Shown one piece after another: positions 1-14,224 of a stretch of DNA of 64,000 nt (position 1 is the stretch's first letter; each line of letters starts with the position of its first letter). Location of the stretch: NCBI GenBank assembly GCA_963815045.1, contig CAWFET010000001.1:124072-188071 (forward strand). Reading direction: 5' to 3'. Both the position numbers and the translations under genes were made by a program. The notes beneath the pieces are model-generated. The model did not search any database. It was not told where the DNA came from and saw only the letters and a program-made list of their open reading frames with translations. The DNA is from an uncultured Solirubrobacterales bacterium. GTDB taxonomy: Bacteria; Actinomycetota; Thermoleophilia; Solirubrobacterales; 70-9.

Positions 1-1555
1 CGGGATACGAGCGGCTGGGCGCCAGCAGGTTGATCGGAGGCGTTGGGCTCGCCGGGCGGACGAGGTTGAGCCCGGCGATGTTGGCCACCGTGAAGGGGTC
101 GGTGCAGCCGGTGGTCGGCGGCGTGCAGTCCGTCTCGGGATTGAGGCCCTGGAAGAAGTTGACGTCGTCGGACTGTCCCGTCCCGTCGATCGTTCCCGAG
201 GCCATCAGCTGGCGGACCTCGTTCGGGGTGATCACGCACGGATCGCCGTCGACGCGCGTGCAGTCCCCGCTCGGGTCGAGCTTGCCACGGTCCTGGGCGT
301 CGAGCGCGGCCGAGTAGATCAGGCCGGCAATCCCCGCACCCTTGCCCGTCGCCTCGGAGGAGCAGCTGCTCGAGGGGATGGACACGGTGACCTTGGCGCT
401 GAAGTTGGTGCAGCCGTTGAAGTCGAGATATGACTGCGGCGTCGAGCCGCTGTCGTACTTGGTGACGGAGTTGACCAGGATCACGTGGGGGAGGCTCGAC
501 GGCCAGTTGTTGTGCTGAGCCGCTTCGTCCGCGGCAGAGGCGATCACCGTGGTCCCGTGGTCGTAGGCGTAGTTGACGGCTTCCCGCGCGAGGCGGCTGT
601 TGTTGAGCGTCCCGAGCGCCTCCTGGATCACGAGGGCCCCGTTGTCGGTGGCGTAGAGGGCGGCCTGGGCGAAGTTGTTGACGTCGGCGACGAAGCTGTC
701 CCCGACGCGCAGCGGCATCACCACGCAGTTCGGGCAGGAGCCGGCGTCGCCTTGTCCGTTGTCGGCCTCGGCCGTGGAGTCCTGGACCTCACCGGTGCCG
801 TGCCCGTACTGGACGTCGTCGAAGGGGTCGTTGTCGTTGTCGAGGAAGTCCCAGCCCGCGATGTCGTCGACGAAGCCGTTGCCGTCCGCGTCGTCTCCAT
901 TGGAGAAGGCGATGATCAGGTCCTCGGGAGTGAGGTAGCCGGCGGGCCCTGAGCGACGTGGATCGGTGAGGTCGACCCGGTCGTCGCAGGCGTAGTCGCG
1001 CAGGTTGAAGACGCCGTCGCCATTGGCGTCGTACTGGCCGGCCGTGTAGGAGGCGCAGTCGGTGCCGAGCAGCGACTCCGTGGTCGAGCCGGCGTCGTCC
1101 AGCCCGGAGTTGGGAGTCGGCAGCTCTCCCTTGTTGAGCCAGACCTTGAAGCGCTCATTGTTCATCGCCCCCTGGTTGTTCCACTCGATGCCCGAGTCGA
1201 GCACCGCGATCTGGACGTCGGGGCGGCCCGTCGTCGTCTCCCAGGCGGTCGCCGGCGTTGTGCTCGAGTCGACGATGTGGGCTCCGCGAACGCCGCCGAG
1301 ATCGATGTTGTTCGGGTCGCCCGGATACCCCGCCTCGGGGGTCGCCGCGTACTTCCAGTCGTCGCCGCCCAGATCGCTGGGAACCTGACCGGCGTCCGTG
1401 TGGAGATCCTTGAAGTCGGTCGGATCGCCGCCGGGGTGTGTATACGGAAAGTCGCCCAGTGCGGAGTCCGCCGCCGTCATCGCGATGGCGCCGGCAAGCA
1501 GCCCCGCGGCCAGCACGAGGCGGGCTCCCAACCGAACAGTCCTCTCCTTCCTCAC
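1..1555 (-). CDS. S8 family subtilisin-like secreted serine protease (C-terminus runs off the window start)
   Basis: Absent from the ORF track because it is open at the window edge. My own reverse translation from GTG at 1555 (alternative TTG near 1531, after AGGAAGGAGAGG) gives a signal-like N-terminus VRKERTVRLGARLVLAAGLLAGAIAMTAADSA. Triad-like motifs follow: VLDSGIEW (Asp), QYGHGTGE (His) and SSEATGKGAGIAGLI (Ser). Confidence 0.8.
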   Translation of the reverse strand, partial: MRKERTVRLGARLVLAAGLLAGAIAMTAADSALGDFPYTHPGGDPTDFKDLHTDAGQVPSDLGGDDWKYAATPEAGYPGDPNNIDLGGVRGAHIVDSSTTPATAWETTTGRPDVQIAVLDSGIEWNNQGAMNNERFKVWLNKGELPTPNSGLDDAGSTTESLLGTDCASYTAGQYDANGDGVFNLRDYACDDRVDLTDPRRSGPAGYLTPEDLIIAFSNGDDADGNGFVDDIAGWDFLDNDNDPFDDVQYGHGTGEVQDSTAEADNGQGDAGSCPNCVVMPLRVGDSFVADVNNFAQAALYATDNGALVIQEALGTLNNSRLAREAVNYAYDHGTTVIASAADEAAQHNNWPSSLPHVILVNSVTKYDSGSTPQSYLDFNGCTNFSAKVTVSIPSSSCSSEATGKGAGIAGLIYSAALDAQDRGKLDPSGDCTRVDGDPCVITPNEVRQLMASGTIDGTGQSDDVNFFQGLNPETDCTPPTTGCTDPFTVANIAGLNLVRPASPTPPINLLAPSRSYP

Positions 1556-1597
1556 CTGCACGGCGATTCTATGCCTCGGCGCCGCGAGTGGGGCGCG

Positions 1598-2434
1598 TCA
1601 GGGAATTCCCGCCGCCCGGTGGATGAACCCGAGCCGGTCGGCGACCCGCGCGTAGATGCTCGCCCCACCCAGCCCGCACGGGAAAACCCCTGAGCTGACG
1701 GCGCCGATCAGCCGCGGGCCGCCGGGCGTGTCGGCCACCAGCGGGCCGCCGCTGTCGCCCTCGCACGAGGTGGCCCGGAAGGGGAGGCGGCTGTGGGCCC
1801 GGCGGATCCGCTTCCCGAGGGCGCAGATCATCGAGGCCTGCTGAAAGCCGCGCGACTTCCCGTATTCGCGGTCGCATTTCCTGGCGGGATAGATGCGCTC
1901 CTTGGTCGTCTTCAGCCGGCGAGCGACATTGAAGCCCCAGGCGCTGCGGGTGCCCCATCCGGCCGAGCGGACGATGCGCCCCCGCCTGGTCGCCGCCTTC
2001 GACTCGGCCTTGGTGGCGAGAGCGATCGGCTGCACATCGGGGGCGCTCGCCAGGGTCAGGACGGAGAAGTCGTGGGCGCCCTTGTGCCCGTTGTAGGCGG
2101 GGTCGATCGCGACGGCGGTCAACTTGATCCGGGGCCTGCGCCTCGGGGGCGTGATCCAGGCGCTGCCCGCAAGCACCGACAGCTCCCGGTGTTTGCCACC
2201 TTTCACGCAGTGCGCCGCCGTCAGCACCTTTGTCGGCGCGATCAGCGAGCCGCTGCAGATGAAGCGGCGCTTCTGGGTGAGAGCGACGGCGAACTGCCAG
2301 CCGGCTGGGTTGGCCTTGCCGCCGCCGACGATCCGCGGCGAGGACCCGGCGGCGGCTCCGCTCCCCGGAGCGAGTGCGAGCAGCAGGACAGACAGTCCCA
2401 GGGCGGCGCCCCCCAAGCGCCGGTGCGGCCTCAT
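1598..2434 (-). CDS. S1 family trypsin/chymotrypsin-like secreted serine protease
   Basis: 278 aa ORF with signal peptide MRPHRRLGGAALGLSVLLLALAPGSGAAAG, then IVGG, TAAHC (His) and GDSGGP (Ser) motifs. Same strand as the S8 gene, 43 nt upstream of it. Confidence 0.9.
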   Translation of the reverse strand: MRPHRRLGGAALGLSVLLLALAPGSGAAAGSSPRIVGGGKANPAGWQFAVALTQKRRFICSGSLIAPTKVLTAAHCVKGGKHRELSVLAGSAWITPPRRRPRIKLTAVAIDPAYNGHKGAHDFSVLTLASAPDVQPIALATKAESKAATRRGRIVRSAGWGTRSAWGFNVARRLKTTKERIYPARKCDREYGKSRGFQQASMICALGKRIRRAHSRLPFRATSCEGDSGGPLVADTPGGPRLIGAVSSGVFPCGLGGASIYARVADRLGFIHRAAGIP

Positions 2435-2516
2435 TCCTCGTTATTCCCCCGGCAATGCGCGGCAGCGCTCGGTCATCGGATGCGAACCCTAGCCCGCCGC
2501 CCCTAGACTCGCGGCG

Positions 2517-3623
2517 GTGTTCCGCCGCGAGCCGCTCAGCATGCCGTTCGCAGACCAGCTGGGCGATCTTCGGCGCGTGATCCTCTCCGAGGGGCGGGTC
2601 GAGCCGGCGACGCCGGCCCGCTTCGCGGCCGCCGCGGTGGCTCATCGGGTGATCGGCGCGTGCGTTCAGGCCATGAACGACGAGCGGGTGATCCTGGGCG
2701 AGCGGGATGCGGGAGCGCTGCGGGACGCGCACGCAGTCGCCGCACTGAGCACGGCTCTCGCCGCCCGCGAGCTCCCTGCAGTAGCCGTGGCGATCGACTC
2801 AGCCACCTCCGCTCCCGCGATCGTGCTCAAGGGCCCCGCGATCAGCGATCGCCTCTATCCAGATCCCGCGCTTCGGCCCTACGGCGATCTCGACCTGATG
2901 GTTGCCCGCGAGTCGCTCGGGGACGCGAAGACGGCGCTCTCCGCGATCGGCTACGAGGAGCAGATCCAGCTCCGCCCCGGCTGGGAGGTCGCACACGGCC
3001 ACACCATCGACCTGGTCCGCGCGGTGGGGCGGAAGTCCGTCCACGTCGAGGTTCACTGGCGGGTGAGCGATGACCGGGTCGGGGAGGCGATGTCCCACGC
3101 CGCACTCTCGGAGGCCGCCGAGCGCGTCCCCGGGACCCCGGGCGCCGCGTTCCCCTCCCTGCCCGACCAGCTGCTGATCTGCGCTCTGCATCTGATGAGC
3201 CATCGCGAGAAGCGGCTCGCCTGGCTCGAGGACATCAGGCGGATCAACCTCCTGGCAACGGAGGAGGAGTGGGAGGCGGGTTTCCTGAGGGCGCAGGAGC
3301 TTGGCCTGCTCTGGGTGCTGAACCGGGCCCTCGACTACGTGGAGCGATATCTCGGACTGACTGCGGACCGCCCGATCGGCCCGGGCGAGCCGCCGGCCTT
3401 CGGGCCGGTCCGCGCAGTCGAGGAGCTCGACCTGCAGGCGTCGGTCAACATCGGCCGCCTCGCTGCGCTGCCCTGGCGGCAGCGGCCCGCCCTGGTTCGC
3501 GACATCCTGGTCCCGAGTCGCGACGGGTTGGATGGACTCGTCGGTGGAGACGGCGCCGGCCGGTTCCGGATGATGGCGAGGCACGTCCGGCTGATCGCCC
3601 GCGGCATCGCCCTGCGCCGCTAA
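2517..3623 (+). CDS. Nucleotidyltransferase family protein (Pfam NTP_transf_5 / PF14907-like)
   Basis: 368 aa. The layout YGDLDLMV ... HVEVHW ... is typical of the uncharacterised nucleotidyltransferase family found beside HPrK-like kinases and PqqD proteins. The stop overlaps the stop of the convergent kinase gene by 4 nt. Confidence 0.7.
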   Translation: MFRREPLSMPFADQLGDLRRVILSEGRVEPATPARFAAAAVAHRVIGACVQAMNDERVILGERDAGALRDAHAVAALSTALAARELPAVAVAIDSATSAPAIVLKGPAISDRLYPDPALRPYGDLDLMVARESLGDAKTALSAIGYEEQIQLRPGWEVAHGHTIDLVRAVGRKSVHVEVHWRVSDDRVGEAMSHAALSEAAERVPGTPGAAFPSLPDQLLICALHLMSHREKRLAWLEDIRRINLLATEEEWEAGFLRAQELGLLWVLNRALDYVERYLGLTADRPIGPGEPPAFGPVRAVEELDLQASVNIGRLAALPWRQRPALVRDILVPSRDGLDGLVGGDGAGRFRMMARHVRLIARGIALRR

Positions 3624-4534
3624 TCGTGGTCCCCGGCGGCGAGCACCGCCAGCCGCTCCGCGGCATCCGTGACCGCCTCGAGCGAATCGGGTACGCGGAG
3701 AAGAACTCCATCGACCGATTCCGCCACCCGCGCCGATCCGGCGAAGTCCCTCGTCCCGACCCGCCCGGTCGTGAGCAGATGGTCGAGGAGCTCTCGGTGG
3801 GTCTTCGCAGGATCGGTCCTCTCGACGGCGACGGCCGATCCGGCGCGCTCCCTCAGAAAGGCGACCAGCGCCACCCGGCCGGGGCGATCGGCGGCGCGAA
3901 GCCCGTCGTGCAGACGCCGCCCACGCGGGTCCGCCGGGCCGTTCGCCGAGGCGGCGCCCACCAGGGCAGCGGCTGGCTCGGTGAGCAGAGACCCGCGGGC
4001 ACCCGGCCAGGCCATGTGGCCCGCGTCAGACGGGCGGAGGACGACCCCGTCCTCTCCCAGAGAGGGGTGCCCGGCAGCCGCCAGCGCGGCCGAGAGAGTC
4101 GACTTTCCGCGTCCGGTCACGCCGCAGATCACCACGGCTCTGTCCCCGACCAGGTTCGCGGAAGCGTGCAGGGAGAGACCGCCGAGCTCACCGAGGAGCA
4201 GAGGGATCGCGTTCGAGGCCAGCCTGTCCTCCCAGCGCTCTGCGCCGAGCTCGAGGACGGTGTCCGCGGCCCGGTGGGAGATCGCCATCGAGGCGGGGTC
4301 GATCACGAAGCTGCCGGCATCGGAATGCCAGGCCACGACCCGGTCGCCGAGCCGGGCAGCGGCGTAGTGCGGGCTCAAGTCAGCGTCGACGACCAGGCGA
4401 ACGAGCTCGGCAGGTGCCTCGAGCGGCCGATCATGGTCGGCTCTCACCGTGATCCGGCCGAGCTCTCCAGGAGCCTCGCTGGCCCGGGTCAGCGGCACAT
4501 CCGAGTCGATCTCGTATCCGTGGAGGCTGCTCAC
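3620..4534 (-). CDS. HPr kinase/phosphorylase C-terminal-domain-like P-loop kinase (HprK-related kinase)
   Basis: 304 aa with Walker A motif GVTGRGKST in the middle of the protein, followed by LGEDGVV, as in the HPrK C-terminal fold. Diverges from the PqqD gene across a 45-nt spacer. Confidence 0.75.
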   Translation of the reverse strand: MSSLHGYEIDSDVPLTRASEAPGELGRITVRADHDRPLEAPAELVRLVVDADLSPHYAAARLGDRVVAWHSDAGSFVIDPASMAISHRAADTVLELGAERWEDRLASNAIPLLLGELGGLSLHASANLVGDRAVVICGVTGRGKSTLSAALAAAGHPSLGEDGVVLRPSDAGHMAWPGARGSLLTEPAAALVGAASANGPADPRGRRLHDGLRAADRPGRVALVAFLRERAGSAVAVERTDPAKTHRELLDHLLTTGRVGTRDFAGSARVAESVDGVLLRVPDSLEAVTDAAERLAVLAAGDHD

Positions 4535-4579
4535 AGGAAGGGCGCCGATCGCAGAAGCGCAAGGCTAACCTCCGGCGCC

Positions 4580-4864
4580 ATGCCGGAGAAGCTCACCGCG
4601 TCCACCCGTGTCGCCCGCAGGGAGGGATTGGTCACTGAGCCGATGGATGGCGGCATCGTGATGCTCGATCCCGAGACCGACCGCTATCTGCGCCTGAATG
4701 AGACCGGGAAATTGATCTGGGAGGTGCTCGCCGAGTCGGCGACGGTGGCGGAGCTTGCGCAGGCGCTGAGCGAGCGAACCGGGATAACCCGGGAACGGGC
4801 CGAGGCGGACGCGACCACATTCATCGAGGGCCTGATCGACTACGGCGCCGCCCGGTCCACCTAG
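4580..4864 (+). CDS. PqqD family peptide chaperone (stand-alone RRE)
   Basis: This is the last 94 aa of the spurious 531-aa ORF 3269..4864: MPEKLTASTRVARREGLVTEPMDGGIVMLDPETDRYLRLNETGKLIWEVLAESATVAELAQALSERTGITRERAEADATTFIEGLIDYG. That is the classic PqqD pattern (L..G..YxLN.tg..iW.ll.g..t..el...l). The ATG at 4580 is in frame. Confidence 0.85.
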   Translation: MPEKLTASTRVARREGLVTEPMDGGIVMLDPETDRYLRLNETGKLIWEVLAESATVAELAQALSERTGITRERAEADATTFIEGLIDYGAARST

Positions 4865-4870
4865 GCGGGC

Positions 4871-6400
4871 TCAATCCGGCAATCCGCTCAGGGAGCCCTC
4901 CTGGGCGGCCGCGGCCCCCTCATCGCGTGCGGCGAGGGCAGGAACCGCGATACCCGCTTCGACCAGCCCGGCCGTGGCGTCGAGCACGTCCCGTTCGATC
5001 CGGTCCGGGGCGACCCGGGGATTGCCGGCGAGAAGAGCGCCGATCGCGTCTCCCGGAGTACCTCCGTCGAGCGCGTCCATCACGGTCCCGGCGGTTCGGT
5101 TCAGGGCCTTGACCTGGCCGGACGCAACCACCCTGACCAGGCGCTCTCCGTCGCGGCTCCCGCCCCAGCGCAGCTTGCCCAGCCGGTAACGCCGGGTCAG
5201 TGCCAGCTCCCGAATTCGCATGGTGGCGAAGTCGATGTCCCCCCGGCCGTCGACGGGAAAGTCGGGCATCTTCGACTGCAGGACCTCCATCGCCCTGTCC
5301 AGCTCCGGCCCTCGCTTTCCTCCGGGATGGACCCCCGGCGGCAGCCCGGAGACGGGCCTCTCCTCGTCGCGGTAGGGAACGAGGTCTCGTGCGGCAGCCT
5401 GCTCGCGGTTGCGCGCTCCGTTGCGCCAATCGGAGACGCGCCGGTCGCGCCACGTCGCGCGCAGCCCCCGCCAGCATTCGCCGAGATCCTGCCGGCTGGC
5501 GTCACCGAAGGAGAAAGGATGCTGCGAATCGGCGAGGAAAGCTCCATTTGGGCGCACGAGGAACGCGCGCGGAGCCGAGTCCAGGGCAACCAAGGAGGGG
5601 GGCAGCTCGCTGCCCACGCGCAATCGCGGCCGGGGCGAGCTACCGAACCGGCCCAAGGTCGTCTGCACGCGCTCGAAGTCAACCGCCCATTTCCCTTCCC
5701 GGGCCGCCGCCCCCAGCAGGCCGACCGGAACGACCCGCACCGAGTTCGGCGAGAGCATGCGCATCTGCTCGATGAACTCGCCCAGGGTCGCCTCGTTGCG
5801 CGGGGTGACGACGTGCGCCACCTGGACCTGCCCTCCCCGGGAGAGCATCAGGTCGATCGCCTCCACGGCGCGCCTCCAGCTTCCCGGCACGCCGCGTGAA
5901 GCCTCGTGGAGCTGTGCGGACGCGCCGTCGAGCGAGACGTGTACTCGCGCGCCGGCTCCCGCGAGCCGATCGGCGGCCTCGGCGTCGAGAAACCATCCGT
6001 TCGTGTTCAGCGTCACCATCATCCCCGCGGCGGTGAGGCGCTCCACGCTCTCGAGCGTGAGCTCGCGGCGCAGCAGGGGCTCTCCTCCGGTGACCACCGC
6101 CTCGATCAGCCCGAGCTCGATCGACTGGCTGACGATTCGCCGCCACTGCTCATCGCTCATCTCCGCCGTGCGTGCGAGGGTGCGCCGGGGAGAATCCGTG
6201 TAGCAAAAGCCGCATCGCAGGTTGCAGTGATAGGTGAGCTCAAGCTTGGCCCCTACCGGGCGCTCGGGCACCTCGAGCGGGCGGACGTCGTGAAGCAGGC
6301 GACGGCCGAGCCGGCGCACGCGGTAGCTCCCGCGAATCCGCGGAGGGGCGCGTTCGATCAGATGCGCGCCGGCTCTAGCCGTCGTCGAGGCGAGGCTCAT
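4871..6400 (-). CDS. Radical SAM peptide-modifying enzyme with fused C-terminal PqqD-like RRE domain; no SPASM/twitch cysteines
   Basis: 509 aa. CX3CX2C is present at YHCNLRCGFCY and a GGEPLL glycine-rich SAM motif follows. The C-terminal ~90 aa (ERLVRVVASGQVKALNRTAGTVMDALDGGTPGDAIGALL...IERDVLDATAGLVEAGIAV) look PqqD-like. I find only 4 Cys in the whole protein: 3 in the rSAM motif plus GECW. Confidence 0.85.
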   Translation of the reverse strand: MSLASTTARAGAHLIERAPPRIRGSYRVRRLGRRLLHDVRPLEVPERPVGAKLELTYHCNLRCGFCYTDSPRRTLARTAEMSDEQWRRIVSQSIELGLIEAVVTGGEPLLRRELTLESVERLTAAGMMVTLNTNGWFLDAEAADRLAGAGARVHVSLDGASAQLHEASRGVPGSWRRAVEAIDLMLSRGGQVQVAHVVTPRNEATLGEFIEQMRMLSPNSVRVVPVGLLGAAAREGKWAVDFERVQTTLGRFGSSPRPRLRVGSELPPSLVALDSAPRAFLVRPNGAFLADSQHPFSFGDASRQDLGECWRGLRATWRDRRVSDWRNGARNREQAAARDLVPYRDEERPVSGLPPGVHPGGKRGPELDRAMEVLQSKMPDFPVDGRGDIDFATMRIRELALTRRYRLGKLRWGGSRDGERLVRVVASGQVKALNRTAGTVMDALDGGTPGDAIGALLAGNPRVAPDRIERDVLDATAGLVEAGIAVPALAARDEGAAAAQEGSLSGLPD

Positions 6401-6408
6401 CGGTGCAT

Positions 6409-6422
6409 CCCGGTTTACCGGG
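6409..6422 (-). promoter_or_regulatory. Short stem-loop between the last precursor gene and the radical SAM gene (possible attenuator)
   Basis: cccgg-ttta-ccggg, a 5-bp stem inside the 33-nt spacer between the 6434 stop and the 6400 start. There is no U-tract, so it is weak. Confidence 0.2.
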
Positions 6423-6433
6423 CGGGTCCTGGA

Positions 6434-6565
6434 TCAGGGTGGCGGAGTGGTGGTGGTGCCACTGCCCGCTGAGCCTGCGGCGGTGACGGCCGGCTCATCC
6501 TCGGTCTCGATCTGCTCCACCTTCGGAGCCTCATAGGTGTCCTTGGGTTGCTTGGAATCGGACAT
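6434..6565 (-). CDS. Putative RiPP precursor peptide, copy 3 (43 aa)
   Basis: Hand translation: MSDSKQPKDTYEAPKVEQIETEDEPAVTAAGSAGSGTTTTPPP*. SD AAGGAGAGG lies 3 nt upstream of the ATG. It is a paralog of the two ORFs upstream and sits 33 nt upstream of the rSAM gene. Confidence 0.7.
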   Translation of the reverse strand: MSDSKQPKDTYEAPKVEQIETEDEPAVTAAGSAGSGTTTTPPP

Positions 6566-6584
6566 CTGCCTCTCCTTCATTCGT

Positions 6585-6716
6585 TTACATCTGCGGCGGT
6601 GTCGTCGTGGTGCCGCTGGTGGTACCCGCGGCGGTCACCGCGGGCTGATCCTCGGTCTCGATCTGCTCCACCTTTGGCGCCTCGTAGGTGTCCTTCGGCT
6701 GATTGGAATCAGGCAT
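6585..6716 (-). CDS. Putative RiPP precursor peptide, copy 2 (43 aa)
   Basis: Hand translation: MPDSNQPKDTYEAPKVEQIETEDQPAVTAAGTTSGTTTTPPQM*. SD GGGAGAAGAG lies just upstream. Confidence 0.7.
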   Translation of the reverse strand: MPDSNQPKDTYEAPKVEQIETEDQPAVTAAGTTSGTTTTPPQM

Positions 6717-6737
6717 CTCTTCTCCCTTTCGGTTGGC

Positions 6738-6872
6738 CTAGCCGGGCGGAGTGGTCGTGGTGCCGCTGCCCTGTACGCCGGCGGCGGTCACCGCGGGCTG
6801 ATCCTCGGTCTCGATCTGCTCAACCTTCGGGGCCTCATAGCAATCGTCCTTGGGTTGCCTGGAGTCGGGCAT
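6738..6872 (-). CDS. Putative RiPP precursor peptide, copy 1 (44 aa)
   Basis: This is the C-terminal 44 aa of track ORF 6738..7313: MPDSRQPKDDCYEAPKVEQIETEDQPAVTAAGVQGSGTTTTPPG*. GGAAGG lies upstream. The rest of the 191-aa ORF is antisense to the GT2 gene and is not credible. Confidence 0.7.
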   Translation of the reverse strand: MPDSRQPKDDCYEAPKVEQIETEDQPAVTAAGVQGSGTTTTPPG

Positions 6873-6905
6873 CCGTGCCGCCTTCCGCTGTCGGGTTCGC
6901 GCCAA

Positions 6906-6934
6906 CCCTATAGCGACCGAGGCGCTCTCAACAA
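6906..6934 (-). promoter_or_regulatory. Candidate sigma-70-type promoter for the precursor/rSAM operon
   Basis: On the minus strand: TTGTTG (6934..6929), a 17-nt spacer, then TATAGG (6911..6906). It sits ~35 nt upstream of the first precursor ATG, in the 106-nt divergent spacer shared with the GT2 gene. Motif match only. Confidence 0.25.
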
Positions 6935-6978
6935 GTAAATGGCTCGGCCGCAGCTTCGCGAGTAGGCTCGATCGCGAA

Positions 6979-8283
6979 ATGAGTGCCAGCGTCGTCATCC
7001 CGACGACAATGCGGCGGGCGACCGCCACCGAGGCGGTTGCGTCGGCGCTGGCCGCCGCGGGCCGCCTCGACGGCGGCGAGGTGATCGTCGTCGTGAACGG
7101 GCCGCGGGAGGGACGGCGGCAGCTGGAGCTTCGCTCGTCCCTCCTCAGAGTCCTCGAGTCGCCGGAGGGTCGCGTGGCGAGCGCGCGCAATGTCGGACTG
7201 CGCGAGGCTGCCAACGACGTCGTCCTCTTCACGGACGACGACTGCCTGATGCCCGCGGCGTGGCCGGAGCGGCTCGCCAGGCGGCTACGGACCGACGCCG
7301 CGGCGGTCGCCACGCCTGTCGAGGTGAGACGCGAGGGGCCGGTGACGACGTTCCTCGACTACCAGCGGATCTTCGATCCGCAGCCGGCTGACGCCTCGAC
7401 GGTCGAATTCCCCATTGGCGCGAGTCTCGGCTTCAGGCGGGATCTGGTCGATGTCTCCTTCGACGAGCGAATGACGTTCGGCGACGACGTCGAGTTCGGC
7501 TGTTCCCTTCGCGACCGGGGGATTCCCACCCTCTATGACGCCGAAGCCGGCCCGCTCGTCCACCTGCTCCCCGAGTCGCTTGAGACGATCACGGAGCGCT
7601 TCATCAGATACGGGCGGACCAGCGCCACCCTGTTCCTGCGGGGCGGCCGCGTGGCTTGGTCGATCCCGCGAGCCGCTCCCCTCTATGCGTCCCTCTGCGA
7701 GAACCGGGTTCTCGCGCCCCGTCGCTTCGAGGAGCTGGCGAACCGGGAAGTCAGGACGTTGTTTGCCACCTATGACCTGATCCAGCTCGGCAGCTTCCTC
7801 GTCGGCTACCTCTCGAGGGCAACCGAGATCCTGGGCCGCGAGATCATCGACGTCGACTGGGACGCTCTGGAGCGGGGCTGGGAGGAGATCGAGGCGGCGC
7901 TGCCCGCTCTTCCGGATCGCGACTGGCGAAGCCTGCGGGTCGACTTCGGGCGCTTGGCAACGACCCGCCAGGGGAGACGTCCACCGCTCGCCGCCGAGGT
8001 CGGCAGGCACCTTTTCCGGACCGCCGGTCTCGTCGCGGACCTGGCTGTGGATCACGAGCTCGACGTGGCCGCCGATGAGATCGCGCAGCGTGGGGAGCGA
8101 ATCCAGCGGCGCTCGAACGCGATCTGGACGGAGCTCCGCCGGGGGGCACTTCAGCCGGAGGCGGATGCCCTCGCCAGGCGGCTGAGGGACGTGGGCGTCA
8201 CCTTCCGCGAGGGGATGCAGATGATCGAGGTGAGCACTCAGGGCCCGATCGAGCCGGCGAGGCTGAGGGCCGCTACAGCCTGA
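6979..8283 (+). CDS. Glycosyltransferase family 2 with long C-terminal extension
   Basis: Internal ATG of ORF 6850..8283: MSASVVIPTTMRR..., VIVVVNGP, FTDDDC (DxD-like). The upstream part of the ORF overlaps precursor copy 1 in antisense. Confidence 0.8.
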   Translation: MSASVVIPTTMRRATATEAVASALAAAGRLDGGEVIVVVNGPREGRRQLELRSSLLRVLESPEGRVASARNVGLREAANDVVLFTDDDCLMPAAWPERLARRLRTDAAAVATPVEVRREGPVTTFLDYQRIFDPQPADASTVEFPIGASLGFRRDLVDVSFDERMTFGDDVEFGCSLRDRGIPTLYDAEAGPLVHLLPESLETITERFIRYGRTSATLFLRGGRVAWSIPRAAPLYASLCENRVLAPRRFEELANREVRTLFATYDLIQLGSFLVGYLSRATEILGREIIDVDWDALERGWEEIEAALPALPDRDWRSLRVDFGRLATTRQGRRPPLAAEVGRHLFRTAGLVADLAVDHELDVAADEIAQRGERIQRRSNAIWTELRRGALQPEADALARRLRDVGVTFREGMQMIEVSTQGPIEPARLRAATA

Positions 8284-9529
8284 CCAGGTTCTTGGCCTCG
8301 ATGCCGCGGGTGACTCCGCGGAAGTCGAGGACGAGCGATGAGTCGTCGACCACGCGCTGGTAGTCGATCGTCGGATGGGCGGTGACGATGCAGACCAGGT
8401 CGGCGGACGACAGGGACTCGTCGAGGTCCGCCGAGGACAGCTCGAGGTCCAGGAGCTCGGGGACGTGGGGGTCGTGGTAGGAGACCTCCGCGCCGAGGTC
8501 CCGCAGCAGGCGGATGATCTTGAGCGAGGGCGATTCGCGGATGTCGCCGACGCCGGCCTTGTAGGACACGCCGAGCAGCACCACCCTCGCGCCCTTGGTC
8601 GACTTGCCGACGTCGTTCAGCGCGCGCTCGATCCGGCGGACGCACCAGTGCGGCTGGTTCTGGTTGATCTTCCCGGCGAGCTCGATGAACTCGGTGTAGA
8701 AGTCGTGCTCGCGCGCCTTGTAGGACAGGTAGAAGGGGTCGACCGGCAGGCAGTGGCCCCCCATGCCGGGGCCCGGGTCGAAGCGCATGAAGCCGAAGGG
8801 CTTGGAGGCCGCGGCGTCGATCACCTCCCAGACGTCGATGCCGAGGCGCTCGCAGAGCATCGCCATCTCGTTGACCAGGGCGATGTTGACCGAGCGGAAG
8901 ATGTTCTCGAGCAGCTTGCTGAGCTCGGCGGCATCCGGGCTGCTCACCTCGATGACCTCGTCACAGACGAGGGAGTAGAGCTCGACGGCGCGCTTCGTCG
9001 AATCGTCATTGATTCCGCCGACCACCTTGGGCGTCGTCCGGATGGTGAAGTCGGTGCGGCCCGGGTCGATCCGCTCGGGGGAGAAGGCCAGGTGGAAGTC
9101 CGTGCCGGCCGAGAGCCCCGACTCCTCGAGGATCGGGCGCAGGCGCTCGCGCGTCGTCCCCGGATAGGTCGTGGACTCCAGCACGACCAGCTGGTCCCTC
9201 CGGAGGATCGCGGCGAGCGAAGTGGCCGCGTCCACCATGTAGCTCAGGTCCGGCTCACGCGAGTTGGTGAGCGGGGTCGGGACGCAGATGATCACGGCGT
9301 CGCAGGAGCTCAGGTCGGGGTAGCGGCTCGTCGCGGTCAGACGGTCGCTGAGGGCGGCCAGGCGCTCCGAGGGCACGTCCTCGATGTAGCTGCGGCCCTC
9401 CGCGAGGGCGTCGATCTTGCGCGGGTCGGCGTCGAGGCCCACCACGTCGTGGCCCTCCTCGGCGAAGGCGACGGCAAGCGGCAACCCGACGTATCCGAGC
9501 CCGATGACTCCGACTCTCATGCGCGCCAT
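8273..9529 (-). CDS. Nucleotide-sugar dehydrogenase (UDP-glucose/GDP-mannose dehydrogenase family; WecC/TviB-like)
   Basis: 418 aa with MRVGVIGLGYVGLPLAVAF Rossmann motif, GGHCLPVDP catalytic Cys motif and the C-terminal UDP-binding domain. Confidence 0.9.
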   Translation of the reverse strand: MARMRVGVIGLGYVGLPLAVAFAEEGHDVVGLDADPRKIDALAEGRSYIEDVPSERLAALSDRLTATSRYPDLSSCDAVIICVPTPLTNSREPDLSYMVDAATSLAAILRRDQLVVLESTTYPGTTRERLRPILEESGLSAGTDFHLAFSPERIDPGRTDFTIRTTPKVVGGINDDSTKRAVELYSLVCDEVIEVSSPDAAELSKLLENIFRSVNIALVNEMAMLCERLGIDVWEVIDAAASKPFGFMRFDPGPGMGGHCLPVDPFYLSYKAREHDFYTEFIELAGKINQNQPHWCVRRIERALNDVGKSTKGARVVLLGVSYKAGVGDIRESPSLKIIRLLRDLGAEVSYHDPHVPELLDLELSSADLDESLSSADLVCIVTAHPTIDYQRVVDDSSLVLDFRGVTRGIEAKNLVRL

Positions 9530-9542
9530 GTTAGGGAGGGGG

Positions 9543-11957
9543 TTACTTGGCGCTGGACTTCTTCTTGCCTTGCTGCGCGGCCTGGGCGGCCGGCTGGACG
9601 CCGATCAGGTGGTCGACGAACAGGCCGCAGGCCGCGGCCGTCGGCAGCACCTTGAAGCCATCGGGATTGACGGCCGTCAGGTTGCCGATCACGGCGGGCG
9701 CGTCCACGCCGATCAGTGACTGGAACCAGTTGACGTCGTCGGCGGTGACGGTGACGGTGACCGGCCCGCCCTTGCTGGTGATGGTGCCGACCGGCCAGTA
9801 GGGGCCCTGATCGGGCCGGTAGGGGATCGCGGCGTCGACTCCCGCGGGCAGGTGTGCGTCGAGGCCGGGCGCCCTGACCGTCACGCCCGTGACCGGGCTG
9901 ACGTACTGCAGCGACAGCTCCCAGCGGCCGGCGGGCAGGCTGATTCGCTGGCTCGCGGTCTGGCCGGGCGCCAGGTTGTTGTCGATCGGCGCCCGCTTGG
10001 CGGCCGCTACCCCGCCCTCGCCCAGCGCGCCGCTGGCGCCGCCGGCCTTCCAGTAGAGCCTCTTCGCGATCACGGTGCGCGGCTGCCAGGTGAGCGCCTC
10101 GCCGCCCTGGGTGACGTAGTTGCGGAACTTCGGCTTCTTGCAGCGGAAGATGCGGCCGGGCCGGGCCTCCTCGGCGAGCTGCTGGATCGGCGGCGTCTTG
10201 CCCGTCCGCTTCCAGAGCCGGTAGGACTCGGTCGAATCGACGAGCCTCCATCCGGGCGGCGCCTGGCTCTGGTAGATCGCGCTCGTCGTGACGGCGTAGG
10301 GGAAGTCGTTGAGGACGGAGGTGGGCACCGTGTCGAAGTCGATCGGGAGCCGCTGCGACTTCGATCCCACTGAGTCGACGCGGATCTCCGCGTTGAAGGC
10401 GGGGCTCGAGACCTCGGCGGTGCGGAGGCCGTAGTCGCTGAACCGGTCGCCGGTCAGGGCGAGGACCCTCTGCCCCGCGACAGTGTCCTGGAACTCGGCG
10501 AGCTGCTCGAGGCGGTCGTGCGGCGCGATCACCGTGTCACGCAGGGCCAGGAAGGTCGAGTAGCCGGCCAGCGCGATGAAGACGACCGCGAAGATCCGCT
10601 TCGGCCAGCCGCCCCCTGGCGCCAGCAGCGCAGCGAGCACCAGCAGCATGACCACCGAGGCCGGCACCACCACCGCCTTGGCGAGGATGTAGAGGCCGCC
10701 GGTCTCGATGTACTTCGTCGCGAGCCAGATCAGGATGCCGGAGATCACCGCGGCGGGAACGGCATAGTCGATGCGCCCGATCCACCAGACGAGGCCGATG
10801 ACGAGGCCGACCAGGCCGATCGCGCCGAAGATCCAGAAGTGCGCCACATCGTGCGTACCCAGGAGCCAGTTGCCACTGGGCCAGATGCCGAGCGTCTCCA
10901 GTGGCGAGACGACGTATCGGAGCTTGCTGTCGGTGCCGGCGACGTTCCCGATCGAGCCCGACTGGATGAAGTCGATGATCTTCGGGAGCTGCGTGAGCGC
11001 GGCCAGCACGAGCAGGATCAGCGCCGGGATGACGATTCGCAGCGAGCCGCGGACAACGTCCCGGACTCCCTGGGACCCCTTCTCCGCCCGGATCTGGAGG
11101 AGCTCGGCGAGGGCCCAGAGCCCGGCGGTGACGACCAGCCACGCCACGCCCGGGAGGCTGTAGACGGGGATCATCGCCGCCGCGATCAGCGCGAGGCCGA
11201 TCACGATCGCGACCCGCCCCTCGGGCTGGCGTTTGATCTCCCTGAGCCCGAGGGCGAAGGCGATCAGGAACATCCCGGCGATCAGCTCCTTGAAGCCGGC
11301 GATGCCCAGCACCGAGGCCGTCAGGAAGGCGAGCGAGACGAGGACCGCACCGAGCAGGCGGCGCGCGCCGGGCAGCTCACGCAGGCCGCCGAGGGCGGTG
11401 ATGCCGGTGAGCGCGGGGGCCGCGACCAGCAGCCCGAGCCAGCCCCAGAGCGGCTGCGTGCCGAGCACGCTGACCACCGTCCCCACGAGGCTGTGCGGTC
11501 CCAGGGGGTAGCCGTTGATCACGCTCTGCGGCGTCGGCCTGCTCGGATCGACGAGGTAGTCGACGTCGACCAGGTGCATGGCCATGTCGTTGTTGAGCCC
11601 CACTCCGGGAATGCCGATGTGGCCGCTCGCGATGAACGGGAACGAGGCGAGCAGCAGGCACACCAGCGCGACCGGCGTCGCGATGCCCGCGGCGGGGCCG
11701 AACACCGACTCGGGCCGGACGATCAGGAAGACGATCGACGCGACGACCAGGATCGCGCAGCAGACGATCGAGGTGGCCTCGTTGCCGGGCAGCTTGATGG
11801 CGACCGTGCAGACGAGGATCAGCGTCGCCAGGCCGACCGCGCCCTCGAGAAAGGATGCCTCCCGCCGGCCGAGCGCGAGCAACAGCGCCCGGCCGACCAG
11901 CAGGGACGCGAGCAGGATGATCCCTGCGGAGACGTAGGTTCCGGCGAAGGCGCCCAC
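9543..11957 (-). CDS. Large polytopic membrane protein (804 aa) with C-terminal extracytoplasmic domain; possible GT-C-type transferase or polymerase
   Basis: More than 12 hydrophobic segments over the first ~480 aa, then a soluble beta-rich tail. I recognise no motif. Confidence 0.6.
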   Translation of the reverse strand: MGAFAGTYVSAGIILLASLLVGRALLLALGRREASFLEGAVGLATLILVCTVAIKLPGNEATSIVCCAILVVASIVFLIVRPESVFGPAAGIATPVALVCLLLASFPFIASGHIGIPGVGLNNDMAMHLVDVDYLVDPSRPTPQSVINGYPLGPHSLVGTVVSVLGTQPLWGWLGLLVAAPALTGITALGGLRELPGARRLLGAVLVSLAFLTASVLGIAGFKELIAGMFLIAFALGLREIKRQPEGRVAIVIGLALIAAAMIPVYSLPGVAWLVVTAGLWALAELLQIRAEKGSQGVRDVVRGSLRIVIPALILLVLAALTQLPKIIDFIQSGSIGNVAGTDSKLRYVVSPLETLGIWPSGNWLLGTHDVAHFWIFGAIGLVGLVIGLVWWIGRIDYAVPAAVISGILIWLATKYIETGGLYILAKAVVVPASVVMLLVLAALLAPGGGWPKRIFAVVFIALAGYSTFLALRDTVIAPHDRLEQLAEFQDTVAGQRVLALTGDRFSDYGLRTAEVSSPAFNAEIRVDSVGSKSQRLPIDFDTVPTSVLNDFPYAVTTSAIYQSQAPPGWRLVDSTESYRLWKRTGKTPPIQQLAEEARPGRIFRCKKPKFRNYVTQGGEALTWQPRTVIAKRLYWKAGGASGALGEGGVAAAKRAPIDNNLAPGQTASQRISLPAGRWELSLQYVSPVTGVTVRAPGLDAHLPAGVDAAIPYRPDQGPYWPVGTITSKGGPVTVTVTADDVNWFQSLIGVDAPAVIGNLTAVNPDGFKVLPTAAACGLFVDHLIGVQPAAQAAQQGKKKSSAK

Positions 11958-12011
11958 GGAGGCGGACAGGATATTGGGGCCGGGGAAAAGCGGGGCTGAG
12001 CGTCAGATGAT

Positions 12012-13025
12012 CTAGGCCCCGATGCGGTCCCTGGTCGATTCCCCGCGCTCGCGCCCGAGGGTCAGGAACTGGTCGAGCGGATATCCCCAGCGCAGCCCGC
12101 GGAGGACCTCCCAGTCGGACCGCCTCCTCACGGAGTCGACCTGGTCGCGGCGCCCGCGCATCTGCGACCGGTTCGCGCGGACCCAGCCGTAGCTCCGCCA
12201 CTTGGCGCGCAGGAACTTCGGCCCGCGCAGCAGGCAGTAGCCCCACATCATCAGCTCGCTGAGGGCGAGCAGCGGGGAGATCGCCAGGCGCGTCCGCCCG
12301 CGCAGGTCACAGACCAGCATCTTCCAGCGGTTGCGCTCGAGCAGGAACAGCTTGTGGGGGAACATCGAGAGGTGGTAGTCGTGGGCGACCGTGGAGCCGG
12401 GCTCGCACCAGATCTCGTTGCCGGAGATGCGCAGGAGCCAGGAGAGCTCGACGTCCTCGAAGTAGAGGAAGCCGCTCTCGTCCCAGCCACCGAGCTGCTC
12501 GAGCAGGTCCCTGCGGATGAGGAAGGCCGCGCCGTGGAGCCCAGTCACCTGGAACGCCTCGCTCCCGGCGACGTCGCGCGGCTTCCCCAGCCAGCGGTTG
12601 AAGCCGAGCCCGGTCTTGTTGAGGTTCTGCCCCGCGGCCATGATCCGGCCCGGGTCGGAATCGAGCAGGATCAGCGGGCAGGCGACGCCGGCGGCCGGGT
12701 TCGCCTCCAGGAGCGCGACCAGCGGATCGAGCCAGCCGGCGCCGACCACGACGTCCATGTTGAGGACGGCGATGTGGGCGCCCTCGGCCTCCCCCGATGC
12801 GAAGTTGACCGCCCCCGCGTAGCCGCGATTCGTGGGGGACCGGAGCAGGCGGACCTCGTCACGCTCGTCGGCCAGCCGCTCGGCGATCGCGGCGCTGCCG
12901 TCCGAGGAGGCGTTGTCCACCACCAGCACCTCGATCCGCTGCTCGCCGGAGTGCTCGAGCACGGCGCGAACGCACCCCTCCAGGGAGTCGGCGCCGTTGT
13001 AGTTGACGACTACGACCGAGACCAG
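12012..13025 (-). CDS. Glycosyltransferase family 2 (rhamnosyltransferase-like)
   Basis: VSVVVVNYNGADSLEGCV...VLVVDNASSDGS...NRGYAGAVN. The GT2 domain starts right at the stop of the upstream gene (13010). The only start-like codon there is CTG at 13025, preceded by GGAAGG. The ATG of the track ORF (13280) would overlap the upstream gene by 270 nt. Confidence 0.75.
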   Translation of the reverse strand: MVSVVVVNYNGADSLEGCVRAVLEHSGEQRIEVLVVDNASSDGSAAIAERLADERDEVRLLRSPTNRGYAGAVNFASGEAEGAHIAVLNMDVVVGAGWLDPLVALLEANPAAGVACPLILLDSDPGRIMAAGQNLNKTGLGFNRWLGKPRDVAGSEAFQVTGLHGAAFLIRRDLLEQLGGWDESGFLYFEDVELSWLLRISGNEIWCEPGSTVAHDYHLSMFPHKLFLLERNRWKMLVCDLRGRTRLAISPLLALSELMMWGYCLLRGPKFLRAKWRSYGWVRANRSQMRGRRDQVDSVRRRSDWEVLRGLRWGYPLDQFLTLGRERGESTRDRIGA

Positions 13026-14224
13026 TGGGAGGAGCCTTCCTCGGCGAGACGGCTGATCCGGCCGCTGAAGATCGAGATGAAGAGCGCGGCCGAGAGCATC
13101 TGCAGGCCGAGGACCAGGAAGCTGGTGGAGAGGACCAGCGCCCGCGTGTCGGTGAAGACGTTGTTGCCGGCCCACTGGACGGTGAGCTGGACCAGCTTGG
13201 CGAACGAGCCCAGCATCAGCACCAGCCCGAGGGCCGCCACGCCGAGCCGGAAGCGAACCGAGATCACGCGCAGCAGCCACCGCGGCGGCTCCTTGCCGGC
13301 CTCGACGCCGTAGAGGGCGGCGGCGACGCCGAAGATCACCAGCTGGAAGGAGGCCAGCACGCCGAGCGTCACGACGATGAAGCTGTTGATGTCGAGGCCG
13401 AGGAAGAAGGTCTTCACCGGCCCGGCGATGGCGAGCGCGATCGCCCCGGTGATCGTCACTCCCAGCAGGGCGAGGCCCGGCACGATGAAGCTGAGCGTCG
13501 GGTTGTAGATCAGCAGCAGCACGATCACCCGGCCGAGGATCCGCAGCCCGTCCTTCCAGGGGCTGAGCTTCTTCTCGCCGACCCGCGGCAGGTAGGAAAT
13601 GGGTATCTCCGCCTCGCGCAGTCCACGCGCCTTCGCCTTGATGCCGATCTCGGTCTCGATGTCGAAGCCGCGAGCCTCGGTGCCGAGCCGCACCGCCTCA
13701 GAGCGCCGGATCGCGTAGAGGCCGGTGAGCTGGTCGGCTCCCTCGAGCCCGTGGCTGATCGCGAGCAGCTTGTTGAAGAGCCAGTTCCCGATGCGGTTCA
13801 CTGCCGGCATCGACTCGGGCTCTGACTCGCGGATGCCGCGGACGAGGTCGTTCTCGTCGAGCAGGTCGACCATCTCCTTGATGGCCGGAACCGGGTAGGT
13901 CGCGTCCGCGTCCATGATCACGACGTTCTCGCCCTGCGCCTCGGCGATCCCCGTGCGGATCGCGACGCCCTTGCCGCGGTTGTCCTTGTGCTGGATGAGG
14001 CGGACCGGGTAGCGCTCCGCAACCTCGGCGGTGTCGTCGGTCGAGCCGTCGTCGATCACCAGCACCTCGTAGGAGCTGTCCAGGTACTCGCCGAGCTCCG
14101 TGAGGACGTGCGGGAGCGCCGCGCCCTCGTTGTACGCGGGAAGCAAGACGGTCGTGCGGATGGCGTCGGCGCCTGCGGCGCTCTCGCCCCCCGCCTTCTG
14201 CGAAGCGGTAACCGCCATGGGCAC
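13010..14224 (-). CDS. GT2 polyprenyl-phosphate glycosyltransferase (DPM1/GtrB-like) with C-terminal TM helices
   Basis: TTVLLPAYNEG...VLVIDDGSTDDT...NRGKGVAIRTG...VIMDADATY, then 4 hydrophobic helices. Confidence 0.85.
   Translation of the reverse strand: MPMAVTASQKAGGESAAGADAIRTTVLLPAYNEGAALPHVLTELGEYLDSSYEVLVIDDGSTDDTAEVAERYPVRLIQHKDNRGKGVAIRTGIAEAQGENVVIMDADATYPVPAIKEMVDLLDENDLVRGIRESEPESMPAVNRIGNWLFNKLLAISHGLEGADQLTGLYAIRRSEAVRLGTEARGFDIETEIGIKAKARGLREAEIPISYLPRVGEKKLSPWKDGLRILGRVIVLLLIYNPTLSFIVPGLALLGVTITGAIALAIAGPVKTFFLGLDINSFIVVTLGVLASFQLVIFGVAAALYGVEAGKEPPRWLLRVISVRFRLGVAALGLVLMLGSFAKLVQLTVQWAGNNVFTDTRALVLSTSFLVLGLQMLSAALFISIFSGRISRLAEEGSSHWSRS

Follow-up and report, generated by a model that had tools for sequence, protein, structure and literature searches.

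A predicted radical SAM peptide maturase of soil Thermoleophilia that combines a cysteine-less twitch remnant with a C-terminal RiPP recognition element

The DNA analysed here (the window) is a stretch of 64,000 nucleotides from an uncultured Solirubrobacterales bacterium (assembly GCA_963815045.1, contig CAWFET010000001.1, positions 124,072 to 188,071), and all coordinates below are positions within it. Its minus strand carries a gene for a 509-amino-acid (aa) protein in which a radical S-adenosylmethionine (SAM) core is joined to a C-terminal PqqD-like domain, a predicted recognition element (RRE) for peptides that are synthesized on ribosomes and modified post-translationally (RiPPs). The gene is present in one copy in its own genome, and the encoded enzyme is basic (pI 9.8), with Arg making up 13% of the whole protein. 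Based on the open reading frame (ORF), profile and structure searches and AlphaFold2 (AF2) models, the gene was divided as follows.

4871-6400, minus strand: radical SAM-RRE fusion gene (ORF with 509-aa translation, P0001)
6266-6400, minus strand: N-terminal basic extension, residues 1-45, with 10 Arg (AF2 and alignment)
5696-6265, minus strand: radical SAM partial TIM-barrel core, residues 46-235 (PF04055 and PDB matches)
6203-6226, minus strand: CX3CX2C cluster motif in the core, residues 59-66
5411-5695, minus strand: predicted Cys-less twitch/SPASM remnant, residues 236-330 (SkfB profile alignment, AF2, column conservation)
5474-5476, minus strand: codon of Cys309 in the ECW motif, the only non-cluster Cys (conserved at the locus and in the family)
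5237-5410, minus strand: inter-domain segment, residues 331-388 (alignment, composition)
4931-5236, minus strand: predicted C-terminal RRE module, residues 389-490 (Pfam, NCBIfam, profile and Foldseek matches)

To place this gene, we collected its relatives. A word-indexed search returned >660 homologues of the fusion protein; among the best 120 of these, most are ~490-510 aa long and most carry precomputed PF04055 and PF05402 assignments. The annotations of the homologues and outgroup proteins among the matches listed are generic only (e.g., "MoaA/NifB/PqqE/SkfB family" or "AdoMet-dependent heme synthase"), and no curated NCBIfam model covering the family was found. A scan of one genome per species gave 111 coding loci, 80 of which were kept. 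All 80 come from metagenome-assembled genomes of Thermoleophilia (Solirubrobacterales, Thermoleophilaceae, Gaiellales and Conexibacteraceae), and no family member outside this class was found in the scan. Within the class the distribution is patchy, the family being present in 4 of 201 sampled genomes. Judged by its sequence, the gene is a member of a conserved family and not a broken gene, and its product is an uncharacterised radical SAM peptide-modifying enzyme of soil Thermoleophilia. The N-terminal extension, which has a moderately conserved SY.LRR.GRR motif in the family alignment, is modelled by AF2 as helices at residues 3-16, 20-23 and 26-36 with low to moderate confidence (predicted local distance difference test, pLDDT, 51-69).

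The radical SAM core is intact in sequence and model, and it looks catalytically competent. Pfam PF04055 (Radical_SAM) matches residues 54-211 with an E-value of 2.6e-23 and 83.5 bits, against a gathering score of 29.5. The cluster cysteines C59, C63 and C66 (CNLRCGFC) are invariant in 74/74 locus sequences, and in an alignment of 30 sequences they are invariant together with the GGE SAM-binding motif (G105-G106-E107) and many other core residues. NCBIfam matches are partial, confined to the core and far under their cut-offs, the best being StsB, Rv1681, MftC, MoaA, AhbD and PqqE. Foldseek searches with the full AF2 model (pLDDT 82, predicted TM-score 0.83) placed SkfB first, followed by SuiB, BlsE and MoaA, whereas the best PDB match of the single sequence is BlsE, a nucleoside-sugar decarboxylase. 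A large subclade (loci L010-L023 and many others) has one extra Cys 135 residues past the first cluster Cys, in the motif VGVCVVHVVTP; it would lie in a barrel strand at about residue 194 of the window protein, whose own subclade is without it.

A first-pass annotation of this DNA had counted four cysteines in the protein, the CX3CX2C triad and one in GECW, and had concluded that no set of cysteines is left for auxiliary [4Fe-4S] clusters. The translation gives exactly these residues (Cys59, Cys63, Cys66 and Cys309), and the conclusion extends to the whole family: a Cys count across it found no member with a set able to ligate an auxiliary cluster. The same annotation described the enzyme as being without SPASM/twitch cysteines; these, and any PF13186 match, are indeed missing, but the fold is not. 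PF13186 (SPASM) gave no match to the full protein, nor to residues 222-345 searched alone at E<=10. When this segment was scanned at the same threshold in six family members, a single match was obtained, in P0050; it lies over the stretch of the twitch remnant and stays under threshold (15.4 versus 21.5 bits). An intact SPASM domain was rejected on this basis, and TIGR04085 was likewise absent among the NCBIfam matches listed.

On the other hand, the family profile matches SkfB (6EFN) with an E-value of 1.1e-24, and the alignment runs with high posterior probability from the core to the twitch beta-hairpin. Residues 236-330 are conserved and modelled with confidence; they comprise a bridging region, a beta-hairpin (279-289), a PF.FG motif and an alpha2'-like helix (306-316). 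In the AF2 model the strands 279-282 and 287-289 and the helix 306-316 correspond to beta1', beta2' and alpha2'. Among the 74 locus sequences, P277, P284, G286, P295, G299, W310, W317 and W325 of the remnant are invariant, and R283 and F296 are each retained in 73. The Aux-I cluster of SkfB is held by Cys333, Cys351, Cys385 and Cys387 (PMC6231123). In the profile alignment, which allows an offset of +2 in the chain numbering of SkfB, Cys333 before the hairpin corresponds to Ala276 and Cys351 after beta2' to Asp291; past the helix equivalent to alpha2', where SkfB holds the other two, no family Cys is present, and the CXC and CX2CX5CX3C segments are wholly absent from the window protein. Cys309, the sole extra Cys, does not fall on any auxiliary ligand position. 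Thus, as far as alignment and model can tell, the SPASM/twitch domain is degenerate rather than absent: the hairpin and alpha2' are kept, no ligand position is occupied by Cys, and SPASM lacks its second half. By sequence and model the enzyme descends from the SPASM/twitch branch, with SkfB, PqqE and MftC as its nearest characterised relatives.

These positions also bear on whether an auxiliary Fe-S cluster could still be bound, through non-Cys ligands (Asp291, Ser292 or a His) together with Cys309, or with a partner protein, the other subunit of a dimer or the substrate contributing ligands in trans. Asp291 and Ser292, which are 95-97% conserved, take the place of a former ligand, and an Asp ligand is known for PqqE and open coordination sites for SkfB and CteB (PMC6231123). 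Against this, the protein has only one Cys to spare, the partner proteins have 0-2 Cys and the precursor peptides described below essentially none, and the segments past alpha2' that carry further ligands are entirely missing. In the radical SAM superfamily we know of no stable site, whether [4Fe-4S] or [2Fe-2S], that has just one Cys ligand, and we regard a retained auxiliary cluster as highly improbable.

Cys309 itself is strongly conserved. The position is Cys in 71/74 locus sequences and in 124/131 family proteins (~95%). For comparison, we used an outgroup of the nearest representatives (E-values 1e-62 to 1e-38), 41 of which have a matchable hairpin motif. In 37 of these 41, position 309 is Ile, Leu or Val, the equivalent of the "eiW" of SPASM, and the canonical Cys after beta2' is retained in 35. 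A Cys at 309 and a Cys at the post-beta2' position never occur together. By this pattern Cys309 is derived and specific to the family, and it is a candidate hydrogen-atom donor.

The C-terminal segment that the first-pass annotation had read as PqqD-like was recovered as an RRE by profile and structure searches. PF05402 (PqqD) matches residues 427-484 with 26.4 bits, above its gathering score of 23.4. The domain alone matches NF033530 (lasso_PqqD_Strm, the lasso PqqD chaperone) with an E-value of 2.5e-5, and the family profile matches TfuB1 (6JX3_B) at 1.4e-4. In Foldseek, the model of the domain (pLDDT 83) superposes on TbiB1 with a TM-score of 0.81 and a root-mean-square deviation (rmsd) of 1.6 A and on TfuB1 with a TM-score of 0.77; further matches are the RREs of CteB, TigE, LynD/TruD, ThcOx and PbtF. 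The fold consists of a basic helix (RRYR), beta strands within residues 405-433 (410-414, 420-424 and 430-433 in the AF2 models) and three helices within 435-481 (435-444, 449-459 and 465-481). Sequence and model thus agree that the domain is a true winged-helix RRE of the lasso-B1 type. The SPASM profile search and the structure prediction with Foldseek, both of which the annotation had proposed as checks, returned no intact SPASM and a C-terminal winged helix, as it had expected.

The annotation fared less well on the connection between the two domains, which it had described as a linker of ~100 aa rich in Arg and Pro. Most of this region is structured, conserved sequence. Residues 331-347 are conserved (LVPYRDEE, with Y343 invariant), and residues 389-414 form a conserved, very basic helix and strand (RRYR; 23% Arg; pLDDT 93-98) that belongs to the RRE module. 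Only residues ~348-388, about 40 aa, are a variable linker with insertions and deletions and 17% Pro, and the inter-domain segment 331-388 as a whole has a pLDDT of 66-77. Since Arg accounts for 13% of the entire protein, its enrichment in the supposed linker is marginal.

A hidden Markov model (HMM) of the fused domain detected it in 78/81 loci. The three exceptions are L075, whose gene is cut by the contig end, and L025 and L026, which are paralogues without RRE. The latter two (L025:7881-9320 and L026:7905-9107) also lack the kinase and the standalone PqqD protein described below; precursor-like ORFs are still present upstream, and both genomes hold complete copies as well (L024/L057 and L043/L058). 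These two genes could be in decay, or they could encode variants that have no RRE of their own and are served in trans.

Next to the fusion gene are three tandem genes for short peptides, upstream of it and on the same strand, and a group of accessory genes lies on its other side.

6434-6580, minus strand: putative precursor peptide 3, 48 aa, leader YEAPKVEQIETEDEPAVTAAG, tail SAGSGTTTTPPP (ORF and family precursors)
6585-6716, minus strand: putative precursor peptide 2, 43 aa (ORF and family precursors)
6738-6872, minus strand: putative precursor peptide 1, 44 aa, from an internal ATG of a longer ORF (ORF and family precursors)
4580-4864, plus strand: standalone PqqD-family RRE, 94 aa, similar to lasso chaperones (PF05402, E 4.2e-18; NF033530, E 3.4e-15)
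3620-4534, minus strand: HPr-kinase-related P-loop protein, 304 aa, a putative peptide Ser/Thr kinase (weak TIGR04352 HprK_rel_A match, E 4.7e-7; Walker A GVTGRGKST)
2517-3623, plus strand: PF14907 nucleotidyltransferase, 368 aa, accessory gene (PF14907, E 8.2e-35)

The ORF of precursor 1 (6738-6998, minus strand) stays open upstream and could encode 86 aa from an ATG at 6998 or 191 aa from a GTG at 7313. The extended ORF overlaps the divergent start of a family 2 glycosyltransferase (GT2) gene at 6850, and the 44-aa start agrees with the family alignment.

Precursor genes, one to six per locus, were found in 75/81 loci, and in the fetched loci 163/166 are on the strand of the radical SAM gene. 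The peptides are 32-48 aa long and share the consensus Y-E-[AP]-P-[SK]-V-E-[EQ]-I-[DE]-T-x-x-x-P-[IA]-x-T-A-[AP]-G, with a leader net charge of -4.5. What follows the consensus is a hypervariable tail of 4-12 residues, which contains Ser or Thr in 166/169 cases, often Gln, and Cys in 2/169; by inspection, and not by count, the listed tails look poor in aromatic residues. Lasso leaders have the same Y-x-x-P-x-V spacing, in keeping with the lasso-type RRE of the enzyme. Considering this matching leader motif and the charge complementarity between leader and enzyme, the fused RRE probably binds the leader peptide.

A comparable arrangement was noticed in locus L082. Here a distant outgroup radical SAM protein (P0193, 494 aa; L082:683-2167, plus strand) has a C-terminal extension that looks PqqD-like by eye, and just upstream lies a 78-aa ORF (P0277; L082:437-673, plus strand) with a leader-like YERPLV motif and a stretch rich in Val, Ala and Gly, VMVGHTVAAVGAAVGALVGAAA. 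This suggests that the combination of a YxxPxV leader and a radical SAM enzyme with a C-terminal PqqD-like extension may reach beyond the Thermoleophilia family.

The standalone PqqD gene and the HprK-like gene are each present in 71/80 loci, nearly always together, and the PF14907 nucleotidyltransferase in 22/80. Six loci (L057, L058, L060, L069, L072 and L077) contain the fusion gene and precursors without the kinase, and four of the six also lack the standalone PqqD. Because such loci exist, the fused enzyme can apparently recognise its substrate by itself, and PqqD and the kinase look like a tailoring module of their own. A literature search on HprK-related kinases and the SynChlorMet and GeoRSP systems returned only unrelated "SCMC" matches. 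The possibility that the fused RRE is a recent duplicate of the standalone PqqD was rejected on pairwise BLASTP (23% identity, E 0.06). The HMM of the fused RRE does detect the standalone protein (E 1.4e-7), and on this evidence the two are homologous, as old paralogues.

The fusion gene adjoins an extensive glycan locus, which includes the GT2 gene (6850-8283, plus strand), a UDP-glucose dehydrogenase-like gene and others; window positions 8273-14224 hold this UDP-glucose-dehydrogenase-like gene, a large membrane protein and further GT2 genes. Together with BlsE as the best single-sequence PDB match, this location might indicate that the enzyme does not mature the adjacent peptides and acts on another substrate, e.g., a sugar nucleotide of the glycan locus, its PqqD-like domain serving protein-protein contacts. 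The glycan genes are not conserved beside the radical SAM gene, however: GT2 accompanies it in 1/80 loci, and the remaining glycan genes and the trypsin-like protease do so in 5-6/80, in close relatives only. On these grounds the glycan locus and proteases were rejected as part of the peptide system, and the glycan locus appears to be a neighbour. The precursors and the fused RRE, on the other hand, are conserved, the RRE is nearest to the lasso B1 proteins, which bind leaders, and the YxxPxV motif that matches them is found in the precursors. A substrate other than the adjacent peptides is therefore improbable.

We consider it likely that the protein is a single-cluster peptide maturase with a C-terminal RRE. 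As a whole, the data are best explained by a leader-guided radical SAM maturase with a single [4Fe-4S] cluster and with Calpha epimerisation as the leading chemistry, an explanation to which we would give an even chance of being right. The fused RRE and its conserved basic RRYR helix would capture the acidic YxxPxV leader of the tandem precursors, and the Pro-rich tether would let the bound peptide reach the barrel, into which the short, Ser/Thr-containing, Cys-free tails would be fed. A 5'-deoxyadenosyl radical would then abstract a hydrogen atom from the peptide, and Cys309 would return one, as proposed for Cys372 in PoyD, to complete a Calpha epimerisation. A separate tailoring module that reads the same leader would be made up of the HPr-kinase-like protein and the standalone PqqD, joined in some clusters by the PF14907 nucleotidyltransferase. 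Since no auxiliary cluster could take up an electron, redox-neutral chemistry is the most economical and most likely assumption. Epimerisation or other chemistry started by hydrogen abstraction, which the first-pass annotation had proposed, would agree with the precedent of PoyD and with the derived, ~95% conserved lone Cys309. Epimerisation specifically is, by analogy, possible and still doubtful.

Several points weigh against this scheme. The cluster content is deduced from cysteine counts alone, and by sequence the nearest relatives are not epimerases but SPASM/twitch enzymes with oxidative chemistry. The residues that known radical SAM epimerases modify are mostly hydrophobic, and the tails encoded in the window are instead rich in Thr, Pro and Gly. 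The enzyme may also act on the conserved T-A-A-G junction and not on the variable tail. Cys309 is replaced by Ser, Thr, Ala or Val in ~5% of family members, so that it would be important and not absolutely required: three otherwise intact proteins (L079:1043-2845, L065:7653-9341 and L076:7884-9362) have Ala, Ser or Thr there, and the close relatives L078 and L079 differ at this position, with Cys in the former and Ala in the latter. Finally, the likeness to PoyD concerns a described layout, and beyond the radical SAM core the two have been compared by description only.

Some of these points would suit an enzyme of the same architecture that performs oxidative chemistry, such as an intramolecular cross-link (Ser/Thr-O or C-C, within the tail or to TAAG), a dehydrogenation or a C-terminal decarboxylation, with the electron taken by the radical SAM cluster itself or by an external acceptor in place of the auxiliary cluster. 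The closest characterised relatives are the oxidative maturases SkfB, SuiB, PqqE and MftC and the decarboxylase BlsE; nearly all tails offer Ser or Thr (166/169) and many offer Gln, and the family tolerates the loss of Cys309 in ~5% of its members. Such an enzyme would nevertheless have to do without an auxiliary cluster as electron conduit, and the hypervariable tails of 4-12 residues show no conserved donor-acceptor pair. The known cross-links fit poorly as well: with Cys in only 2/169 tails, sactionine and ranthionine chemistry is excluded, and the few (uncounted) aromatic residues make cyclophanes unlikely. We regard oxidative chemistry as the main alternative and as rather unlikely.

Returning to the single-cluster maturase, a broader evolutionary proposal can be put forward tentatively and with some doubt. 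The family may be an offshoot of the SPASM/twitch maturases that dropped the auxiliary cluster but not the twitch scaffold, now empty, acquired Cys309 as a new active-site thiol and a lasso-type RRE at the C-terminus, and performs an undescribed modification of ultra-short Ser/Thr-rich tails, yielding D-residues or a non-thioether cross-link. If this is true, a new RiPP class restricted to soil Thermoleophilia would have this protein as its central enzyme, and the family would amount to a natural test of why auxiliary clusters are required. The role of these clusters in SPASM/twitch enzymes has long been debated, with electron conduit, substrate ligand and structural element all under consideration. 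An enzyme that descends from the twitch branch and retains the scaffold after losing all ligands would allow a natural comparison of which reactions are still open to it and what stands in for the cluster. It would also be the signature enzyme of a RiPP pathway that is uncharacterised, belongs to soil Thermoleophilia that are poorly cultured and uses lasso-type leader recognition outside lasso machinery. In addition, peptide engineering could make use of an enzyme that is compact and brings its own RRE, and of core peptides that are variable and very short.

Among known systems, the closest in layout are the proteusin epimerases. The first-pass annotation had taken an N-terminal RRE combined with SPASM or twitch domains as the rule for such maturases and had treated the present layout as exceptional. 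The rule is broadly correct, but the rarity was overstated, since the proteusin epimerases are a published exception: according to a review (PMC8326336), these enzymes, of which PoyD is an example, have no cluster besides that of the radical SAM core, bear the RRE at the C-terminus and share one conserved catalytic Cys, and the RRE-Finder paper cites C-terminal RRE fusions in proteusins (PMC7470986). A literature search on C-terminal RREs brought up the proteusin case only. Compared by published description with PoyD, OspD, AvpD and PlpD, the protein studied here has the same predicted triad, its C309 being ~95% conserved and its cluster content read from Cys counts. It would be a second, independently evolved case of the PoyD-type layout (one cluster, C-terminal RRE, one conserved thiol), and such a second case would suggest a recurrent solution for cluster-independent peptide chemistry. 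There are also differences. PoyD-type enzymes act on long proteusins with NHLP/Nif11 leaders, whereas the precursors here are peptides of 32-48 aa with a lasso-like YxxPxV leader; by sequence the present family is part of the SPASM/twitch branch, it still has a twitch fold in vestigial form, and its members were found in Thermoleophilia only. TIGR04103 (nif11-class radical SAM) matches the core alone (residues 51-187), far under its cut-off, and gave no match above the cut-off in the genome of the window or in the control genomes; no proteusin epimerase is found among the top 50 PDB fold matches listed.

SkfB (6EFN), a twitch sactisynthase, is the best profile and fold match over the core, the bridging region and the twitch hairpin. 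Unlike the present enzyme, SkfB has an N-terminal RRE and an Aux-I Cys site, and it forms a Cys-to-Calpha thioether; here the RRE is C-terminal, Ala and Asp stand at two of the ligand positions and the others are missing, and the precursors are essentially Cys-free. Both hallmarks of sactisynthases and ranthipeptide enzymes, a Cys-bearing core peptide and an N-terminal RRE, are therefore lacking.

The third comparison is with lasso peptides. Both the fused domain and the standalone PqqD resemble the lasso B1 RREs (TbiB1 and TfuB1), and the precursor leaders carry Y-x-x-P-x-V/I/L with a spacing like that of the lasso YxxPxL leaders. In contrast to lasso systems, the tails are without the Gly1...Asp/Glu7-9 ring pattern, the RRE forms one protein with a radical SAM enzyme, and no lasso cyclase or B2 peptidase gene was noted among the ORFs of window positions 1-14000, which were not searched systematically. 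The kinase, PqqD and PF14907 genes form a trio that we take to be the accessory set of phosphorylated lasso peptides (paeninodin-type); in this family the trio stands beside a radical SAM-RRE enzyme instead of lasso machinery.

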